Positions 22,289 to 29,313 of a DNA stretch of 64,000 bases are shown here, in pieces. The position numbers were made by a program, and so were the translations under genes. Location: the NCBI GenBank assembly GCA_963772455.1, contig CAVYXJ010000010.1, forward strand, positions 64,001 through 128,000, in the 5' to 3' direction. How positions within the stretch are numbered: the stretch's first letter is position 1; every line of letters begins with the position of its first letter. Source of the DNA: Candidatus Bathyarchaeota archaeon (GTDB lineage Archaea > Thermoproteota > Bathyarchaeia > Bathyarchaeales > Bathycorpusculaceae). The notes under the pieces were generated by a model. That model made no database searches and was not told where the DNA came from. It worked only from the letters and a program-made list of their open reading frames with translations.

Positions 22289-23896
22289 TTGGTTAAAGGC
22301 AAGAAGTCAATGAGTGCCCAGGAAAAACTCCAACGTGCAATCCAAGCAACTATGGAAGCTGGATATCAATTAAATAGCGAAGCATTCGAGTTCCTAATTC
22401 AAAACGCCCAAACCAACGATCCTGCAAAAATTATGAACTTGGCGCTTGAGAGAATCCAAGGATTACAAGATAAACCGATGTTTATTGAGAAAAGCTTCCT
22501 AGAACCGCTTCTACAAGTCATTGAATCTGGTCCGCTAATTCAAATATCTGAGCCTCAAAGTAGTCCATTGAATATTGTTCCACAACCTCAACTACGATCT
22601 ATTGAGGAATATCAAAGTTCCATTGAACCAGAGTTTTATCCGTACGCAAGAGACATTGCAGCAGAAATCAATATCCTTGAAGACGCTACTGGAAAACTCA
22701 CTTCAAACGGTACATTGGACGAGTATGTACTTTATTTTCAAGATAGGTTTAAACGAATCGAAAAAATCCTGAGGCAAAGGATTGATGTTAAAGCAGCAAC
22801 CCCAATCATCGAAGCTCTCAAATCGCCTCCAAAAACCAAGATTAAAATAATCTGCATGCTAACAGACAAAAGGGATTCAAAAAATAACATTATTCTTTCC
22901 GTCGAGGATTTACATGGAAGCGCTACTATTATTGTTTCTAAAAAAGCCCCTGAAGAAGTAAAGAAGAAAGCACTCACGCTTCTACCAGATCAGGTTTTTT
23001 GCGCTGCCGTCGTCAAAACAAGAAGCGAATTGCTGATGGCTGAAGATATAATTTTTCCTGACGTAGGCAGAAAAGTGCCACAAAGAGCACAAGAACCAGT
23101 TTATGCTGTCCTCACATCGGACATCCACATTGGCAGCACAAAATTTACCAAAGAGCCATTCAAACGCTTCATCCTCTGGCTAATGGGCAAGTATGGAACC
23201 CCTGAAATGCGCCAGATAGCCAGCCGTGTTAAATATCTTCTTGTTGCTGGTGACATTGTGGATGGCATAGGCATTTATCCTGGGCAACAAAACGAGCTAA
23301 CCATAAGGGATTTGCATAAGCAATACAATTTTGCAATTAAATATTTAGAAAAAATCCCAGATTACATTGAAATCATTCTTTCCCCAGGTAACCATGATGC
23401 AGCACGAAAATCCCTGCCACAACCTGCAATTCCAGAAGGATATTTGACTGCTATTCAAGGCAAAAAGAACATACACTCAGTAGGTAGTCCATGCCTACTA
23501 AGCATTCATGGTGTAGAAGTACTCATGTACCACGGCAGAAGCTTAGATGACATAGTATCAGTTATCCCTGGCATGGACCATCAGCACCCAGAAAAATCGA
23601 TGCGTTTACTCATGCAAGGACGACATTTAGCACCCGTCTATGGTGGAAAAACCATGCTTTCCCCGGAAAACCGCGATTACCTCGTAATCGACAAAGTTCC
23701 AGACATTTTTCATGCAGGACACGTACATGTTAATGGTCTTTGCAATTACCGTGGAGTGCTTGTGGTTAATTCTGGCGGGTGGCAAGAACAAACTGATTAC
23801 ATGGAAAAGTTAGGGTTGGTTCCTACACCAGGACTGGTGCCCGTTGTGAACCTTCAGACTCTTCAGACCACCGTTTTATCTTTTAACGATGTCTAA
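22289..23896 (+). CDS. polB: DNA polymerase D small (exonuclease) subunit DP1
   Basis: SDIHIGS, AGDIVDGIGIYPGQ, PGNHD, YHGRS, RHLAP, HAGHVH. Confidence 0.95.
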   Translation: MVKGKKSMSAQEKLQRAIQATMEAGYQLNSEAFEFLIQNAQTNDPAKIMNLALERIQGLQDKPMFIEKSFLEPLLQVIESGPLIQISEPQSSPLNIVPQPQLRSIEEYQSSIEPEFYPYARDIAAEINILEDATGKLTSNGTLDEYVLYFQDRFKRIEKILRQRIDVKAATPIIEALKSPPKTKIKIICMLTDKRDSKNNIILSVEDLHGSATIIVSKKAPEEVKKKALTLLPDQVFCAAVVKTRSELLMAEDIIFPDVGRKVPQRAQEPVYAVLTSDIHIGSTKFTKEPFKRFILWLMGKYGTPEMRQIASRVKYLLVAGDIVDGIGIYPGQQNELTIRDLHKQYNFAIKYLEKIPDYIEIILSPGNHDAARKSLPQPAIPEGYLTAIQGKKNIHSVGSPCLLSIHGVEVLMYHGRSLDDIVSVIPGMDHQHPEKSMRLLMQGRHLAPVYGGKTMLSPENRDYLVIDKVPDIFHAGHVHVNGLCNYRGVLVVNSGGWQEQTDYMEKLGLVPTPGLVPVVNLQTLQTTVLSFNDV

Positions 23897-25134
23897 GTGA
23901 GGGGGTTTGGGTTTTTGCGAGAAGCTTGGGGTGAATACTCAATCAATCGATTAAAACGATTATCGCTACTAAAGACGTCTCTAATCAAACTGCGAGATAT
24001 CTCAAGCCTAATCTTTTTAGTTCTGCCGTATCGTCCCATGCTTACAACTTTTGCGTTCACAAGACCCATCGAATCAAGCTCGTTGACCAAAGTACCTAAA
24101 CGACGCTGTGTTAGAAGCCCAGCGCCCATTTCACCGCATAGTTCATTGTAAATATCGTATATTTCGCCTGTAGTAGCGCTCGACCTATTTAGGTGGTAAA
24201 CACTCAGCAACACTAACTTTGAATGCAACGTCAGATTATTGAGAGCTTCAATAACTCGATTGTGTTCAATATGTTTCTCTGCTTGGCGTACATGTTCCTC
24301 AGTAATTGTTTTTGCACCTGAACGCTCAGCAACTTCGCCAGCAACACGCAACAGATCTAAAGCACGCCTAGCATCACCATGTTCCGCAGCAGCCAAAGCT
24401 GAGCAAATACTCAAAGCTGAATCTGAAAGAACTCCATCTTGGAAAGACAATTTTGATCGTTCTAGCAAAATATTTCGAAGCTCCCCAGCATCATATGGCC
24501 TAAAGACAAGTTCTTCTTCACTTAATGAACTGAATACTCTCGGGTCCAAGAATTCTTTTAGGCGAAGATCATTTGAGATTCCAATTAGGGCAACTTTGCT
24601 TTTGGTTAACGTTTCATTTATCCTTGTTAACTCATACATGAAAGCGTCGCCATGTTCCTTAATCAAGGCGTCAACCTCATCCAAAACTATGATGAATATT
24701 ATCCTTGATTGTTCTAACCCTGAGCGGAACCTGTCAAAGACTTCACCTACTGATAAACCAGTGAAGGGAATGGTTAATCCTACACTTTGGCTTAAGGCTG
24801 CGAAAACCCTGTATTCTGAACCTGTCATACGACAGTTAATGTAGCAGAATTTGACTTGTGCACCATATTCTTTTGCTTTGGATTCCAGATGGCTTAAAAC
24901 ATATTTTGTTACGGCTGTTTTTCCTGTTCCAGTTTTTCCATAAATGAAAATATTTGAGCAACGTGAATCTCTCAAGACTGGAGCAACAGTTGCACCTAAC
25001 AATCGAATCTGGTCTTCACGGTGTGGAAGTTTTTCCGGAAGATAATCATGTCTTAAGACCTCGCGGTCTTTGAACAATTTAACTCCGTTTACGAAGTTTT
25101 CGAATACATCATCTAATACGCTTGAGTTGCCCAT
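23893..25134 (-). CDS. cdc6: Orc1/Cdc6 replication initiator
   Basis: LPHRE, YGKTGTGKT, VLDEVD, HGDARRALDLLR, GRYGRTK wHTH. Confidence 0.97.
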   Translation of the reverse strand: MGNSSVLDDVFENFVNGVKLFKDREVLRHDYLPEKLPHREDQIRLLGATVAPVLRDSRCSNIFIYGKTGTGKTAVTKYVLSHLESKAKEYGAQVKFCYINCRMTGSEYRVFAALSQSVGLTIPFTGLSVGEVFDRFRSGLEQSRIIFIIVLDEVDALIKEHGDAFMYELTRINETLTKSKVALIGISNDLRLKEFLDPRVFSSLSEEELVFRPYDAGELRNILLERSKLSFQDGVLSDSALSICSALAAAEHGDARRALDLLRVAGEVAERSGAKTITEEHVRQAEKHIEHNRVIEALNNLTLHSKLVLLSVYHLNRSSATTGEIYDIYNELCGEMGAGLLTQRRLGTLVNELDSMGLVNAKVVSMGRYGRTKKIRLEISRSLIRDVFSSDNRFNRLIEYSPQASRKNPNPLT

Positions 25135-25281
25135 TCACTATCCCACACTGCTTCAGAGGTAACACCGTTACTTCGTGTGGAACAGATAAAGTCTATAGTA
25201 CAAAAAAATAGTTTTAGAACACAACATTCCTAAAAAACAATGAAAACAAACGATAATAACCAAACAAAGCGAGAGCACACA

Positions 25282-25303
25282 CACCCCAATGTTTCTACTC
25301 GAG
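25282..25303 (-). repeat. ORB element 1
   Basis: Minus strand CTCGAGTAGAAACATTGGGGTG, resembling the ORB consensus TTCCAGTGGAAAC-n-GGGGT. Confidence 0.75.
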
Positions 25304-25466
25304 AAAAAAGCTTAGTAAAAGAAAATCACTAAATAATATATATACAATTATATACTCTGATAGGTAAGATGTTTTTTTATATATTAATAATTGCTATCAA
25401 AGAATTTAGACAAACATTCTGCAAATATTTTTTCAGCCTCACCTGTGTTCTTTTTGTCCTAAATAC

Positions 25467-25488
25467 TTCGAGAGGAAACATAGGGGTG
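25467..25488 (+). repeat. ORB element 2
   Basis: TTCGAGAGGAAACATAGGGGTG. Confidence 0.8.
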
Positions 25489-25620
25489 CGTCTCCAACCA
25501 TTTTTCCATAGTAAATTGTCCATGCGATAGCTTCTATGTGACAAATTGTAATATGGCTTAACTGAATTCAAGTTAAAGTTTCTTTAACAATTTTTTTAGT
25601 TGTCTTTTCCAGGATTTTCA

Positions 25621-25920
25621 TTCACAAAACTGTGAATAGATGTGAATTGATAGAGAAGATGTTGATTTATCAAGCTTTGATTCTGGTAAATTACCATTTT
25701 TAGGTCTTTTACATGTGAACAAGGCACCCCTACGCTTCTACTGGAAAAGTATAACCAAGGCTGAACTGAATTATTTCAGACGTTTCTTTTTACTGTGAAG
25801 CTGGTAATAACAAACAAACTTCAAATTACACCCGATATAGATTTATGAGCATCTAAATCGCTTATTTATTTACCATGATTCACCATAACAGCTATAAGGT
25901 GTGAAGCATAAAGTTGTGAA
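25621..25920. repeat. Cluster of TGTGAA/TTCAC motifs
   Basis: Copies at 25621, 25631, 25641, 25714, 25794, 25879, 25900, 25915. Confidence 0.65.
25725..25746 (-). repeat. ORB element 3
   Basis: Minus strand TTCCAGTAGAAGCGTAGGGGTG. Confidence 0.8.
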
Positions 25921-25941
25921 CAACCTTAAGGTGTATACCAG

Positions 25942-26376
25942 ATGCCGGCTCGGAAAATGCGCGTTGAGCTGTTCGATAGCGATGGTAATCGATATACTAT
26001 TGCTTTTGAGGGTCAAGTGACCAGAGAAAAAGCTTTGCGCCTTCTGGATCTGGTAGAGTTGCTGGGAAGTGCGCCGGGAGAAAACCTTAGTACGAATACA
26101 GGTACGGCTTTACCTAACAAGACCTTGTCACGTTTTGAAAAGGTTCAACTCGTTATCCAGAAAAACTTTCCTTTGATTTGGTTCTCTTCAAAGGATATAC
26201 AGTCAATTTACGAGCAGGAACTCAAAGAACCCGTCGGCCTCAGCACAGTTTCAACATATCTTTCAAGGATGTCAACCAAAGGTATGCTGCTTAGAACGGG
26301 TGGACCAAACTCCTTGAAATACAAGTCCGTGCCAAACCTTTCCCAAGCGACAACCATAAAACAACATATAAAATAA
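25942..26376 (+). CDS. Origin-adjacent protein with C-terminal winged helix
   Basis: N-terminal RVELFDSDGNRYTIAFEGQVTREK; C-terminal FSSKDIQSIYEQ...LSTVSTYLSRMSTKGML. Confidence 0.8.
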   Translation: MPARKMRVELFDSDGNRYTIAFEGQVTREKALRLLDLVELLGSAPGENLSTNTGTALPNKTLSRFEKVQLVIQKNFPLIWFSSKDIQSIYEQELKEPVGLSTVSTYLSRMSTKGMLLRTGGPNSLKYKSVPNLSQATTIKQHIK

Positions 26377-26471
26377 CCGAGACCAAGCTCTAAACAATTT
26401 AATTCAATCCAGGTTTGGATGTTTGAATCCAAATTTTTTTTAGTTAAACTATTTCGAAGCTTCTTTTAAAT

Positions 26472-27212
26472 TTACGATTGGCTGCTTTCAGCTTTTTGCA
26501 TCAGATTCTCCATTTCTTTTTTGATGCTGTATCTGAATGGAATTTTGCCAGCTTCTCGCTCCAGATATCCTTCTTCGTAGAGTTTCTTCATCAATCTTGC
26601 CGTGTGTTCCCTGCTAAGGTGAACTCTTTCTTTGATTTCAGGTGCCGTTTTCGCCCCTTCTTTGGATAAAATTTCTAGAACTGATATTTCAGTGTCAGTT
26701 AATGAGGCCATGGCTTTGTCACGTTTTAGCATTATAACGGGTTCACTCCTAATTTCAGGTGGGGCAATGTTGATTTTTCGGATTTGTTCTTCAAAACCCG
26801 TAATCTTTACTCGCAGTGTTTCTTGAGTTGCTTCTATGTCTTTTATTTTTAGCTCTAAACCTGATAACCCTGAAAGTATGTTTGTGTTATTTTGTGAGAG
26901 GTTTTGTGATATTGTTTGTGTTATGACGCCAATTTGTTCTTCGAATGGCTTTATCCTTTTTTCCACGTTATCTATCTTCTTTAGGCTGGTATCTGTTTTT
27001 GCAGAGTTACCTTCAACTTTGAATGTGATTATATCTAATTTGTCGGCTTCACGTTTTAGCTCCCGATTGAAACTTAGCACAATATCTTCGACAAAGTCTC
27101 TGGCTTTTTCGTATTCTTTTTGTGCTTTACGTATTTGTCTGTAATACTCAAATGACGCTGCTGATGTTGCAGCTAACAGGATGCCAATGAGTATTGGTGT
27201 AAAGTCGACCGT
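26472..27212 (-). CDS. Putative membrane-anchored coiled-coil MarR-type wHTH protein (probable ACG start)
   Basis: Frame stays open 44 codons upstream of GTG 27080, adding (T/M)VDFTPILIGILLAATSAASFEYYRQIRKAQKEYEKARD; GGGGT SD-like site upstream; C-terminal LTDTEISVL...TAPEIKERVHLSREHTARLMKKLYEEGYLER. Confidence 0.75.
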   Translation of the reverse strand, partial: TVDFTPILIGILLAATSAASFEYYRQIRKAQKEYEKARDFVEDIVLSFNRELKREADKLDIITFKVEGNSAKTDTSLKKIDNVEKRIKPFEEQIGVITQTISQNLSQNNTNILSGLSGLELKIKDIEATQETLRVKITGFEEQIRKINIAPPEIRSEPVIMLKRDKAMASLTDTEISVLEILSKEGAKTAPEIKERVHLSREHTARLMKKLYEEGYLEREAGKIPFRYSIKKEMENLMQKAESSQS

Positions 27213-27498
27213 GATGTATTACCCCTGTGATTTACGCGTGATTTTAGCAGTAACATCACACATCACAGTAATTCCATGGACTTTTTAAGGTTTGTGGTCA
27301 CATTATCACATGTTAACTATGACATCACACATCACAGCCAAATGACTTGTAACAAAAAGTCATTGCAACAGAATCGTTAAGGTTTAAAATGAGGTTATTT
27401 TATTAATTAAAGCATTTATTATAGTTATAATTTCATGTTTGAAATATCATTTTTGGTACGGGAAAAAGTTGTTATTGCCTGTGATTTGTGACGTCACA
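27211..27498. repeat. Cluster of TGTGAT/ATCACA motifs including a 16-bp direct repeat and a 12-bp palindrome
   Basis: ACATCACACATCACAG at 27253-27268 and 27322-27337; TGTGACGTCACA at 27487-27498; about 12 motif copies. Confidence 0.75.
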
Positions 27499-27991
27499 GA
27501 ATCTCTTTTGATGGACTAGAAAGCTGTTTTAGGCTCGTTTCGAGCTCCTCACGGATGATTTCTATGACTTTTAGATGATCTTTTAGTTCCTCTTCCTTCC
27601 CTGGGATGTCTTGGTGCGCCTCGACATATTCGTGAAGTTTATTGGCTATTTCGAGATACGGGTCAAGAGTTGGGCTCTCAAAAACACCCAAATACCCTAA
27701 AAGTAGTACTGTGTAGATCGATTTTATTACGTTTTCTTTGGACTGTTTTAAAGTCCTATTAAACGAGCCGCGGCTTATTTTAGCCTTAGTTAATCTTAAG
27801 GCAGCTTTTTCATCGTACTTTAGCTGTTTATCTGATATATTCTCGGCTAAAACGTCTATTAGCAGAGTTTCGAGTTGAGTTCTTGTTAATTGACTGTTCT
27901 TAGCCAGGATTTTGACTATAGGGTCGTTTAATGCCCCATTTAACCATGCTTGTACACCATCTTTTAGCTTCAAAGTGACACTATCTCCCAT
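27494..27991 (-). CDS. Conserved hypothetical protein, probable HTH
   Basis: SQLTRTQLETL...ISRGSFNRTLKQSKENVIKSIYTVLLLGYLG. Confidence 0.75.
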   Translation of the reverse strand: MGDSVTLKLKDGVQAWLNGALNDPIVKILAKNSQLTRTQLETLLIDVLAENISDKQLKYDEKAALRLTKAKISRGSFNRTLKQSKENVIKSIYTVLLLGYLGVFESPTLDPYLEIANKLHEYVEAHQDIPGKEEELKDHLKVIEIIREELETSLKQLSSPSKEIL

Positions 27992-28363
27992 GCTCTGAAT
28001 GGATACAGTTTTGTATTCCCAGCCTGCTTTTTAAGTTTTAGCTAGGTCAAACATCATACTAATTGTCCAATAAAGCCTGTAAATATTCGTTTAAACAGCT
28101 AAATAACCTAAAAATAATGCTTATTTGGTGTTTATGGCATATTTTGCCATAGTTAACATAAATAAGGTTAAATTATAGGCAATCCAAATCGAGTTATAGT
28201 AGGAACTTTAAACAAAAAATACACTTTTGTAATCTCTTCCAAAGATGTTTCTCGTTTTTTTAGACAACTTTATCCAAACAAAACCCATACGTTTTCATTT
28301 TTACACAAATTAAAACACAGTTTTTGACATAAATGCCTAACTTATCAACAATAGGAACGTTCC

Positions 28364-28477
28364 GTGACGTCACCAATCACGAGCAAAAATCACTGTGATT
28401 TCACCATAAAACTGTTGATATCACGGGCTGTGATTCAATTGTGATATGTGGCTACGGAGAAAGATTTTTTGTGTGAC
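28364..28477. repeat. Cluster of GTGAT/ATCAC motifs
   Basis: GTGACGTCAC 28364-28373, AATCACTGTGATT 28388-28400, further copies at 28376, 28420, 28429, 28440, 28472. Confidence 0.75.
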
Positions 28478-28479
28478 GC

Positions 28480-29313
28480 TTAAAGAAGCTCGGAATAATC
28501 CTTTAGTTTATCAAAAAGTTCAGGCCGTAAGTCCTTAAGCGTTGGAATAAACGTTTCTGCTGTCCTTAAATCGTCAAAATCCACTTCACAGACGATAAAA
28601 TCTTCTTCATCGTACTTTGCCTTAGCCAAAACATCGCCAGTAGGGCCGACAAGGCGGCTTCCTCCCCAAAATTGCAGGCCATCCTCAACTCCAGCAAGGT
28701 TAACATATGCAAGAAAAGCCGTATTCTCCAATGCACGGGCAGAAGTTAAGATCTCAAAATAGTTTCTCCGTACGGCTGGAGACGCAGAAATACAGATTAT
28801 CAATTGTGCCCCTTTCAGTCGAGTCAACCTATACACTTCTGGAAAGAAAACATCATAGCAAATCGTTAACCCAATGTTTCCCAATTCAGTTTGGTACTCG
28901 GATGTATCGTAGCCTGGACGGAAATATCTTTTCTCTTCAAAAACACTGTGCGTTGGCAGATACATTTTGCGGTATTTGCCGATTAAACCCTTGGGTCCAA
29001 CAAAAACGGCGGTGTTAAAGATTATCGCTTTGGTTTTTTTGCTAAGCTCAGGCATTCCAAAAATGATATACATCCCTGTTTTCTTTGCTAAATCCTCAAT
29101 TCTCTGAGTAGACGTTCCAGGTATCGTTTCAGCTAATTCATAGACCTGATCTAAAATGACATAGCCCGTAAGCGAAAGCTCAGGGAAGATAATTAGATCT
29201 GCTCCTTGCTGCTTGGCTTTCAAAGTTAACTTTTCGATTTTAAGCAGATTATCTCTTTTACTTTCTCGTTTGCTGCTTATTTGAGCGAGTGCAAGTTTAA
29301 TCTTACTTTTCAT
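28480..29313 (-). CDS. Carbon-nitrogen hydrolase (nitrilase family; possible glutaminase partner of NadE)
   Basis: FPELSLTGY, YRKMYLP, ICYDVFFPE (E-K-C triad). Confidence 0.9.
   Translation of the reverse strand: MKSKIKLALAQISSKRESKRDNLLKIEKLTLKAKQQGADLIIFPELSLTGYVILDQVYELAETIPGTSTQRIEDLAKKTGMYIIFGMPELSKKTKAIIFNTAVFVGPKGLIGKYRKMYLPTHSVFEEKRYFRPGYDTSEYQTELGNIGLTICYDVFFPEVYRLTRLKGAQLIICISASPAVRRNYFEILTSARALENTAFLAYVNLAGVEDGLQFWGGSRLVGPTGDVLAKAKYDEEDFIVCEVDFDDLRTAETFIPTLKDLRPELFDKLKDYSELL

Follow-up and report, generated by a model that had tools for sequence, protein, structure and literature searches.

Three sets of candidate binding sites, each tied to one of three predicted DNA-binding genes, beside the replication origin of a Bathyarchaeota archaeon

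Introduction

The ParB–parS and Noc–NBS systems have origin-proximal palindromes that lie beside the gene of the protein that binds them; the sites are tolerated in coding DNA, and Noc contacts the membrane. In Bacillus subtilis, RacA, which has an N-terminal MerR-type helix-turn-helix (HTH), and its ram sites, which are spread over hundreds of kb, anchor the origin at the cell pole via DivIVA. In archaea, boxes placed at the TATA box and the transcription start are the classical layout of repression, and Sulfolobus Orc1-2 is an initiator that uses sites resembling the origin recognition box (ORB) as a regulator does. Here we compare with such systems a locus in the 2.45-Mb genome of a soil archaeon, Candidatus Bathyarchaeota archaeon (assembly GCA_963772455.1, 92% complete). 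It comprises three small genes on the origin side of cdc6, labelled g1, g2 and g3, and the arrays of short boxes that lie between and around them. The window is a stretch of 64,000 nucleotides (contig CAVYXJ010000010.1, positions 64,001 to 128,000), and all coordinates without a contig or locus prefix refer to it.

The first comparison is with archaeal regulators. The TrmB-family proteins TrmBL1 and Tgr bind TATCAC-N5-GTGATA, the TGM site, whose half-site equals the presumed g2 half-site GTGAT/ATCAC (PMC4158304); this fits g2 as a GTGAT binder. The predicted winged HTH (wHTH) of g2 scores above the Pfam cut-offs of both MarR and TrmB, and the position of its presumed sites at the TATA box and start suggests autoregulation, as for members of these families. 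Unlike them, g2 is without a sugar-binding effector domain and has a membrane anchor followed by some 140 residues of coiled coil. Unlike TrmBL1 and Tgr, it would have roughly 18 sites, found in the source genome only around its own gene, which are direct 7-bp repeats and zero-spacer palindromes, not N5 dyads.

The second comparison is with systems that organize the origin. With RacA and ram, g2 shares a DNA-binding domain joined to a coiled coil, short sites arrayed close to the origin and, as proposed below, attachment of that DNA to the cell envelope, but the two proteins are not homologous: the g2 wHTH is C-terminal and of the MarR type, the anchor would be its own transmembrane (TM) helix, and the sites lie within 1.3 kb. 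Origin-proximal palindromic sites beside the gene of the presumed binder, some of them in coding DNA, are features in common with ParB–parS, Noc–NBS and SegAB, and with Noc also the contact with the membrane; SegAB is treated in a review which states that the mechanism of archaeal DNA segregation is unresolved (PMC7617429). Unlike the ParB and SegAB systems, the site set is split among three unrelated presumed binders and the locus contains no partner ATPase. No ParB or ParA/SegA domain was found in the ten locus proteins scanned, in agreement with the preliminary description of this DNA, which had reported no ParA-like gene here; the search for ParA/SegA did not extend beyond this locus.

As in the repression loops of gal, lac and deo, clusters of putative operators bracket a gene and its promoter, some of the operators are intragenic, and the binder is presumed to be oligomeric. 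Unlike those loops, the spacing is about 880 bp, there are 5–10 boxes per cluster, and the presumed looping protein is membrane-anchored. As in archaeal origins of the ORB type, cdc6 lies beside inverted ORB-like repeats with an AT-rich stretch between them; unlike those origins, a third ORB lies inside the putative operator array of a wHTH gene and travels with that gene away from cdc6. Literature searches, which covered main texts and not supplements, returned no description of these genes or arrays, nor of an ORB travelling with a wHTH gene.

Three Site Sets and Their Genes

The preliminary description had treated three non-coding clusters, at 25621–25920, 27211–27498 and 28364–28477, as a single family of centromere-like TGTGAH sites. 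The array instead consists of three distinct sets of sites, one per gene. Cluster 1 consists of TGTGAA boxes; clusters 2 and 3 consist of GTGAT boxes together with the palindrome GTGAYRTCAC; and another palindrome, ATAC-N6-GTAT, lies at the start of g3. Each set follows its gene among relatives. Of 20 loci from distant Bathyarchaeia families, 13 have g2, and all of these contain GTGAYRTCAC, as does one of the seven without g2; ATAC-N6-GTAT is found at the 5′ end of g3 in 19 of the 20, irrespective of the presence of g2. GTGAA boxes and a third ORB are found in 7/7 spacers between cdc6 and g1 and in 0/2 cdc6 spacers where the neighbour is not g1; the latter contain two ORBs only (2/2). In three genomes of ammonia oxidisers, the spacer upstream of g1 has the same layout with 10–11 copies of TGTTAA, against 0.4–0.8 expected. 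By this comparison, the sequence of the box has shifted with lineage and the architecture has been retained.

The clusters are extremes of the genome. Exact TGTGA/TCACA occurs 7 times in the first cluster, 10 times in the second and 4 times in the third, a total of 21; the roughly 30 copies of TGTGA(A/T/C) reported earlier are reached with the looser core GTGA[ACT], which gives 8 + 12 + 10 = 30 boxes. Genome-wide, there are 3750 copies of TGTGA/TCACA, a mean of 0.46 per 300 nt. Among 48,777 sliding windows, all eight with at least 6 copies are within the locus, the maximum being 10; of the seven windows with 5 copies, five are in the locus and two in a coding region of contig C7. The three clusters are, therefore, the densest TGTGA/TCACA stretches of the whole 2.45-Mb genome, and the genome-wide count bears out the earlier remark that other intergenic regions showed no similar density. 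The composite sites that had been reported were also found and are unique to the locus: the 16-bp repeat ACATCACACATCACAG has two copies, at 27253 and 27322, and its 13-bp core is found nowhere else in the genome, and the palindrome GTGACGTCAC occurs genome-wide only at 27488 and 28364. Other windows rich in GTGAT or TGTGAA, at C13:60550, C7:7650 and C7:128700, lie within open reading frames (ORFs), show no site structure and look like chance.

In alignments of 13 members of the genus, 23 of the 30 GTGAH boxes keep an identical 5-mer in 10 or more of the sequences, and the boxes stand out as invariant islands in spacer DNA that is variable. The arrays lie 0.5–3.3 kb from the ORB1/ORB2 pair described below, and their composite sites are private to the locus; clustered, specific sites near an origin, a feature of partition systems such as ParB–parS and SegAB, are found here.

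Because many of the boxes lie at the TATA box and transcription start, our leading reading is that g1, g2 and g3 would be DNA binders that each regulate their own gene through private operators; ORB3 would couple the system to Orc1/Cdc6, and g2 would form a loop around g3. We consider this reading somewhat better than an even bet. Which protein binds which sites, and the repression and looping that would follow, we infer gene by gene below.

The Origin and the Conserved Gene Block

The cdc6/orc1 initiator gene (23893..25134, minus strand; 413 aa; Pfam Cdc6_lid, 2.1e-25, and Cdc6_C, 2.8e-24, with AAA domains) lies next to the gene for the PolD small subunit (22289–23896, plus strand). The 807-bp spacer between cdc6 and g1 holds three ORB-like repeats. 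ORB1 (25279..25305, minus strand), conserved in 13/13 genus sequences, forms an inverted repeat with ORB2 (25467..25491, plus strand), which is 83% complementary to it and also conserved, and a direct repeat with ORB3 (25724..25748, minus strand). The interval between ORB1 and ORB2 contains an AT-rich stretch at 25327..25393 with the AT-rich inverted repeat I4 and the conserved block TATATATTAATAAT; this is presumed to be the unwinding element of the origin. The g1 box array contains ORB3, which is 217 nt upstream of g1 and 235 nt from the ORB1/ORB2 pair. The arrangement of cdc6/orc1 next to inverted ORB repeats around an AT-rich stretch is that of an archaeal ORB-type oriC. The origin call rests on the ORBs and cdc6, since the GC skew is uninformative: it has no clear turning point that would mark the origin. 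A second, divergent Cdc6/Orc1 homologue is encoded at C7:36812-37912 and is 29% identical to the oriC-linked copy.

On the other side, the 488-bp spacer upstream of g3 is followed by genes for a CN-hydrolase, NAD synthase and GGGP synthase. The block is flanked by housekeeping genes whose order is conserved, namely those for the PolD small subunit, NAD synthase and GGGP synthase. A scan of 25000–28600 with Rfam gave one miRNA match at chance level, and a scan of the locus for bacterial-type promoters and terminators gave background values.

Conservation of the polD-cdc6-oriC-g1-g2-g3 block extends across Bathyarchaeia and to ammonia oxidisers. At the order level, all 20 loci are syntenic; in 19 of them cdc6 is adjacent, and the remaining locus begins 361 nt upstream of g1. 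At the class level, cdc6 is in view at 14/20 loci, and three ammonia-oxidiser genomes (AmoA in 3/3) have the same order, polD-cdc6-g1-g2-g3-pcrB. The linkage to cdc6 and oriC, for which the preliminary description had proposed a synteny check, is, accordingly, widely conserved. It is not universal. One Bathyarchaeia family has a single, divergent Cdc6 homologue, and 344 kb separate it from g2, g3 and the arrays; elsewhere in Thermoproteota, 7 of 10 distant loci have the g1-g2 pair but no cdc6 within 6 kb. Since genes and arrays persist away from cdc6, the arrays follow the genes and not oriC as such.

In relatives, two further genes lie between g1 and g2, encoding a NurA-like protein of 333–341 aa without a Pfam match and a HerA-like ATPase of 515–527 aa (DUF87, E 5e-8 to 1e-7). 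The pair is present at 7/8 loci of other families of the order and at 1/12 genus loci (e.g., L015:4479-7011 and L025:4499-7028). As a candidate motor of the system it was rejected: no homologue was found by tblastn in the source genome (E 1e-3), the 20 class loci (1e-3) or 12 phylum loci (1e-2). A gene for an XRE-type HTH with a CBS domain, as read from ORF translations, and hypF recur beside g2 or g3 in distant lineages (L113:7977-8660 and L146:7186-7749), and at L146 this coincides with a g2 that has no TM segment. The recurrence hints at an older g1-g2-(HTH-CBS)-hypF-g3 neighbourhood.

The coordinates given earlier for the three genes hold, as does their description as encoding predicted DNA binders: a wHTH protein (g1), a TM segment with a coiled coil and a MarR/TrmB-type wHTH (g2), and an HTH-like protein (g3). 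Each is single-copy in the source genome.

g1, Its Boxes and ORB3

The g1 gene (25942..26376, plus strand) encodes 144 aa; a beta-beta-alpha domain at the N terminus is joined by a linker to a winged helix at the C terminus. The AlphaFold2 (AF2) model (mean predicted local distance difference test, pLDDT, 72) has the same three parts, with the linker disordered. The wHTH resembles MecI/BlaI, Fur and RosR in Foldseek searches (E 2e-3 to 1e-2), with MecI (1sd7) at E 2.4e-3 over 78 columns. Against Pfam Penicillinase_R, g1 scores 17.3 bits, below the cut-off of 22.6, and the likeness to BlaI/MecI is at the level of the wHTH fold only.

The g1-type array extends over 25621..25921 and has eight boxes, TGTGAA/TTCAC, with 5-mers at 25621 (minus strand), 25632, 25642, 25715, 25795, 25879 (minus strand), 25901 and 25916. 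Each is identical in 12–13 of the 13 genus sequences, and the density of TGTGAA/TTCACA in the array is the maximum of the genome. The boxes at 25879, 25901 and 25916 flank the TATA-like sequence GCTATAAG (25891–25898) and the expected transcription start. In the proposed mechanism, g1, whose winged helix is BlaI/MecI-like and is preceded by an additional domain, would bind the TGTGAA boxes, and through these three it would shut off its own promoter. The five further boxes reach 300 bp upstream around ORB3, where g1 and Orc1/Cdc6 would meet on the same DNA.

An ORB-like element in fixed orientation is found at −300 to −100 of g1 (mode about −215) in 43/46 loci across the phylum, including 7/9 loci without cdc6 in view, where 0.017 would be expected per 200 nt. 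Both in the genus and in distant families, the G-rich end of ORB3 directly adjoins a g1 box. Since the ORB travels with g1 across the phylum, g1 is likely tied to the initiator, as its target or its partner. These observations bear on an alternative that can coexist with the reading given above, namely that g1 is an origin accessory factor that sits beside Orc1/Cdc6 at ORB3 and modulates the binding of the initiator or the firing of the origin or, conversely, that Orc1/Cdc6 at ORB3 sets the transcription of g1 and so couples it to the replication cycle. The conserved element and its abutting box speak for such a role, as do the two-ORB spacers where g1 is missing and the wide distribution of g1 as a single-copy gene, present in 134/201 Thermoproteota genomes and 28/28 genomes of the ammonia-oxidiser family. 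On the other side, 235 nt separate ORB3 from the ORB1/ORB2 pair around the AT-rich stretch; ORB-like sites can simply be sites where an initiator acts as a regulator, as with Orc1-2; and g1 is not bound to a cdc6-adjacent origin, since the g1-g2 pair does without a nearby cdc6 at most of the distant loci. We regard the alternative as possible, though on balance improbable.

g2, Its Anchor and Its Sites

The g2 gene (26472..27212, minus strand) encodes a predicted N-terminal TM anchor, a coiled coil and a C-terminal wHTH of the MarR/TrmB type. The wHTH, residues 172–231, scores 34.3 bits for Pfam MarR (cut-off 24.6) and 28.7 bits for TrmB (cut-off 25.6). Hydropathy reaches 1.76 over residues 1–19, and a heptad pattern runs over residues 25–165. 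The TM segment and coiled coil stand in place of an effector part; no match to the TrmB C-terminal domain was found in Pfam, and the extracellular part would be about 4 residues. The TM segment is present in 35/43 orthologues of g2. The eight without it are from three Bathyarchaeia loci (L126, L127 and L131), which still have 3–4 copies of GTGAYRTCAC, and from five other Thermoproteota loci.

The reading frame of g2 is open to 27215 and ends at 26472, and ahead of the TM segment it contains no ATG, GTG or TTG. The start claimed for the gene, 27212, is an ACG codon (27212-27210). Among 78 distinct sequence contexts from relatives, the aligned codon is ACG in 62, ATG in 6, GTG in 3 and TTG in 1. 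Fifty of the 62 ACG contexts have no canonical in-frame start nearby, and a Shine–Dalgarno-like GGAGG/GGGGT lies 6–10 nt upstream. This pattern suggests that g2 uses a conserved ACG initiation codon, which overlaps an ATCAC(G) box.

The g2-type array at 27211..27336 runs over the start codon, the 5′ leader and the transcription start and continues upstream of the TATA-like CCTTAAAAAG (27281–27290, minus strand). Its boxes at 27211, 27227, 27238, 27255, 27262, 27324 and 27331 are identical in 10–13 of the 13 genus sequences. Both copies of ACATCACACATCACAG are in this array, one just downstream and one just upstream of the TATA-like element; correspondingly, pairs of boxes lie 13–26 nt downstream and 34–47 nt upstream of that element, with three further boxes over the leader and the start codon. 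We propose that the membrane-anchored, coiled-coil g2 would bind the GTGAT boxes and GTGAYRTCAC over its own promoter, leader and start codon.

g3 and the Sites Around It

The g3 gene (27494..27991, minus strand) encodes a helical protein of 165 aa with an HTH-like N-terminal domain and belongs to no Pfam family. It has no sequence relative in Pfam or the Protein Data Bank (PDB); a profile search against PDB sequences gave only a chance match of 21 residues to SKP2, and a Foldseek search of the PDB returned nothing below E 1. In the AF2 model (pLDDT 67), residues 3–105 weakly resemble DnaA domain IV and sigma region 4. The top three VIA matches are to DnaA domain IV (Z 6.0, 5.7 and 5.3; root-mean-square deviation 3.3–4.5 over 79–83 residues), followed by sigma region 4 (Z 5.0–5.1); for helical models, Z values under 8 are common. 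Pfam scans of 16 g3 orthologues gave no DnaA_C match, and PF08299 (Bac_DnaA_C) has no match in the source genome at E ≤ 0.001, a search in which 10/14 control genomes were matched. Because the DnaA_C profile finds nothing in the genome and such Z values are common, we read the predicted domain as an HTH and not as kin of DnaA. The gene is found in 126/151 sampled Bathyarchaeia, 102/201 Thermoproteota and 25/28 genomes of the ammonia-oxidiser family.

A candidate g3-type operator, GGATACAGTTTTGTATTC (ATAC-N6-GTAT; 28001..28018), lies 10 nt before the g3 ATG, between this codon and the TATA-like CTTAAAAAG (28027–28035, minus strand), and is the sole match in the genome to the strict pattern. Outside the class, the motif is found at g3 in 4/12 phylum loci, three of which are ammonia oxidisers. 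The g3 protein, as a novel HTH protein, would bind this palindrome on its own transcription start. Two observations concern the motif elsewhere. It is under-represented genome-wide, with 27 copies observed against about 72 expected from base composition, and two identical 20-mers with ATACA-N4-TGTAT, at C5:38930 and C15:7925, may be further g3-type sites or a repeated element.

Sites of the g2 type lie on both sides of g3. At its 3′ end, TGTGAT and the palindrome TGTGACGTCACA (27480..27498) overlap the g3 stop codon and are invariant in 12–13 of the 13 genus sequences; GTGAYRTCAC adjoins the 3′ end of g3 wherever g2 is present. Upstream, a distal cluster at 28364..28446, 373–455 nt from the g3 ATG, comprises CGTGACGTCACC and boxes at 28376, 28389, 28395, 28420, 28430 and 28441. 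Four genomes of another family have a comparable cluster, again with a palindrome, at −413 to −670 of g3, and in the three of these in which nadE was located the cluster is inside the nadE coding sequence. The palindromes that bracket g3 are 876 bp apart in the window and 880–907 bp apart in the four genomes. As two g2-type clusters about 880 bp apart bracket g3, oligomers of g2 would probably loop out and dampen it.

Arrays are also overprinted in coding sequence. In relatives with hypF between g3 and g2, that gene has 19–21 boxes, up to 12 per 300 nt, with palindromes, whereas the source-genome hypF, located elsewhere, has 3. The nadE gene upstream of g3 has 8–9 boxes in the three genomes of the other family against 0 in the nadE of the window. 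These coding-sequence arrays lie 0.4–0.9 kb from g3 and about 1.5–1.9 kb from the g2 promoter. Separately, the spacer upstream of g3 contains two conserved blocks at 28150–28235, TTAACATAAATAAGG and GAACTTTAAACAAAAAATGCACTTTTG, the latter with a TATA-like core; the blocks belong to no assigned gene, and neither a conserved small ORF nor an Rfam match was found there.

Autoregulation, Tethering and Chance

Several observations weigh against three binders that merely control themselves. No regulon was found beyond the locus, to which the composite motifs are unique, in a genome that is 92% complete and where single scattered sites could still occur; three regulators that control only themselves would be odd. 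About 18 g2-type boxes far exceed what a promoter needs, and the GTGAY arrays overprinted in the coding DNA of hypF and nadE argue for more than promoter control. The identity of g3 within the genus, 86–93% (Cdc6, 88–98%), is high for a private repressor. A loop or membrane complex and a role in origin control are kept under consideration for these reasons: the ORB that travels with g1, the clusters that bracket g3, the coding-DNA arrays, the private sites and the conservation of g3. Tethering by g2 and origin control by g1 overlap with self-regulation as proposed here.

Tethering by g2 comes close to the centromere-like interpretation of the preliminary description. The GTGAY arrays would be docking sites at which TM-anchored g2 holds origin-proximal DNA at the membrane, with control of the promoter secondary. 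The arrays described there are real, and they are unique, conserved and linked to the origin; the interpretation itself is called into question by boxes at operator positions, by arrays that persist 344 kb from Cdc6 and by the loss of the TM segment in 8/43 orthologues. In favour of tethering, the other 35 have the TM segment, and the roughly 18 boxes form three patches over 1.3 kb, 2–3 kb from oriC, that are unique in the genome. Even where they fall within hypF or nadE coding sequence, the arrays keep a fixed distance from g3, and parS-type sites are often located inside coding sequence. Moreover, with an extracellular part of only about 4 residues, g2 has no sensor domain that would explain a membrane regulator responsive to signals. 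Against this, the three TM-less Bathyarchaeia loci retain their palindromes, and the family with the distant arrays keeps g2 and g3 together far from its only Cdc6 homologue. The locus encodes no partner ATPase, the HerA-like/NurA-like pair of relatives being absent from the source genome. Intragenic operators and loops of this kind also occur with plain repressors: the gal, lac and deo repressors have operators inside genes and form loops of comparable size. We judge tethering as the principal role unlikely, and self-regulation with looping remains our preferred account of the g2 sites.

Integrated elements may carry short repeats beside a cdc6-like gene, and the clusters might on that ground be iterons of an integrated plasmid or virus, or chance, low-complexity DNA, but this very improbable explanation is already contradicted by synteny and conservation: the clusters are genome-wide extremes, their individual sites are conserved in 13 genus members, and their layout in the class and in ammonia oxidisers, and they sit among housekeeping genes in conserved order beside three genes that are each single-copy.

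Significance

In archaea outside Sulfolobus, the control of origin firing and the separation of chromosomes are largely unknown, the latter according to the review cited above (PMC7617429). The g1-g2-g3 block supplies three widely conserved candidate proteins with mapped candidate sites beside oriC, and it is found in two abundant groups that are uncultured or slow-growing, the Bathyarchaeia and the ammonia oxidisers. Its role may be self-control, control of the origin or anchoring of DNA to the membrane. The most far-reaching proposal, which we offer as speculation and think quite unlikely, is that g1-g2-g3 would be an undescribed origin-organising system of both groups, in which g1, beside Orc1/Cdc6 on ORB3, gates initiation, g2 gathers the GTGAY arrays into a nucleoprotein complex and fixes the origin region to the membrane as a ParA-independent centromere, and g3 is the regulated output. 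If the sites are only self-regulating operators, the locus would provide a clean set of archaeal operator–regulator pairs and, in addition, an example of operator arrays written into coding sequence. The phylum-wide association of an ORB with a winged-helix gene points to a direct connection of that gene with the initiator.

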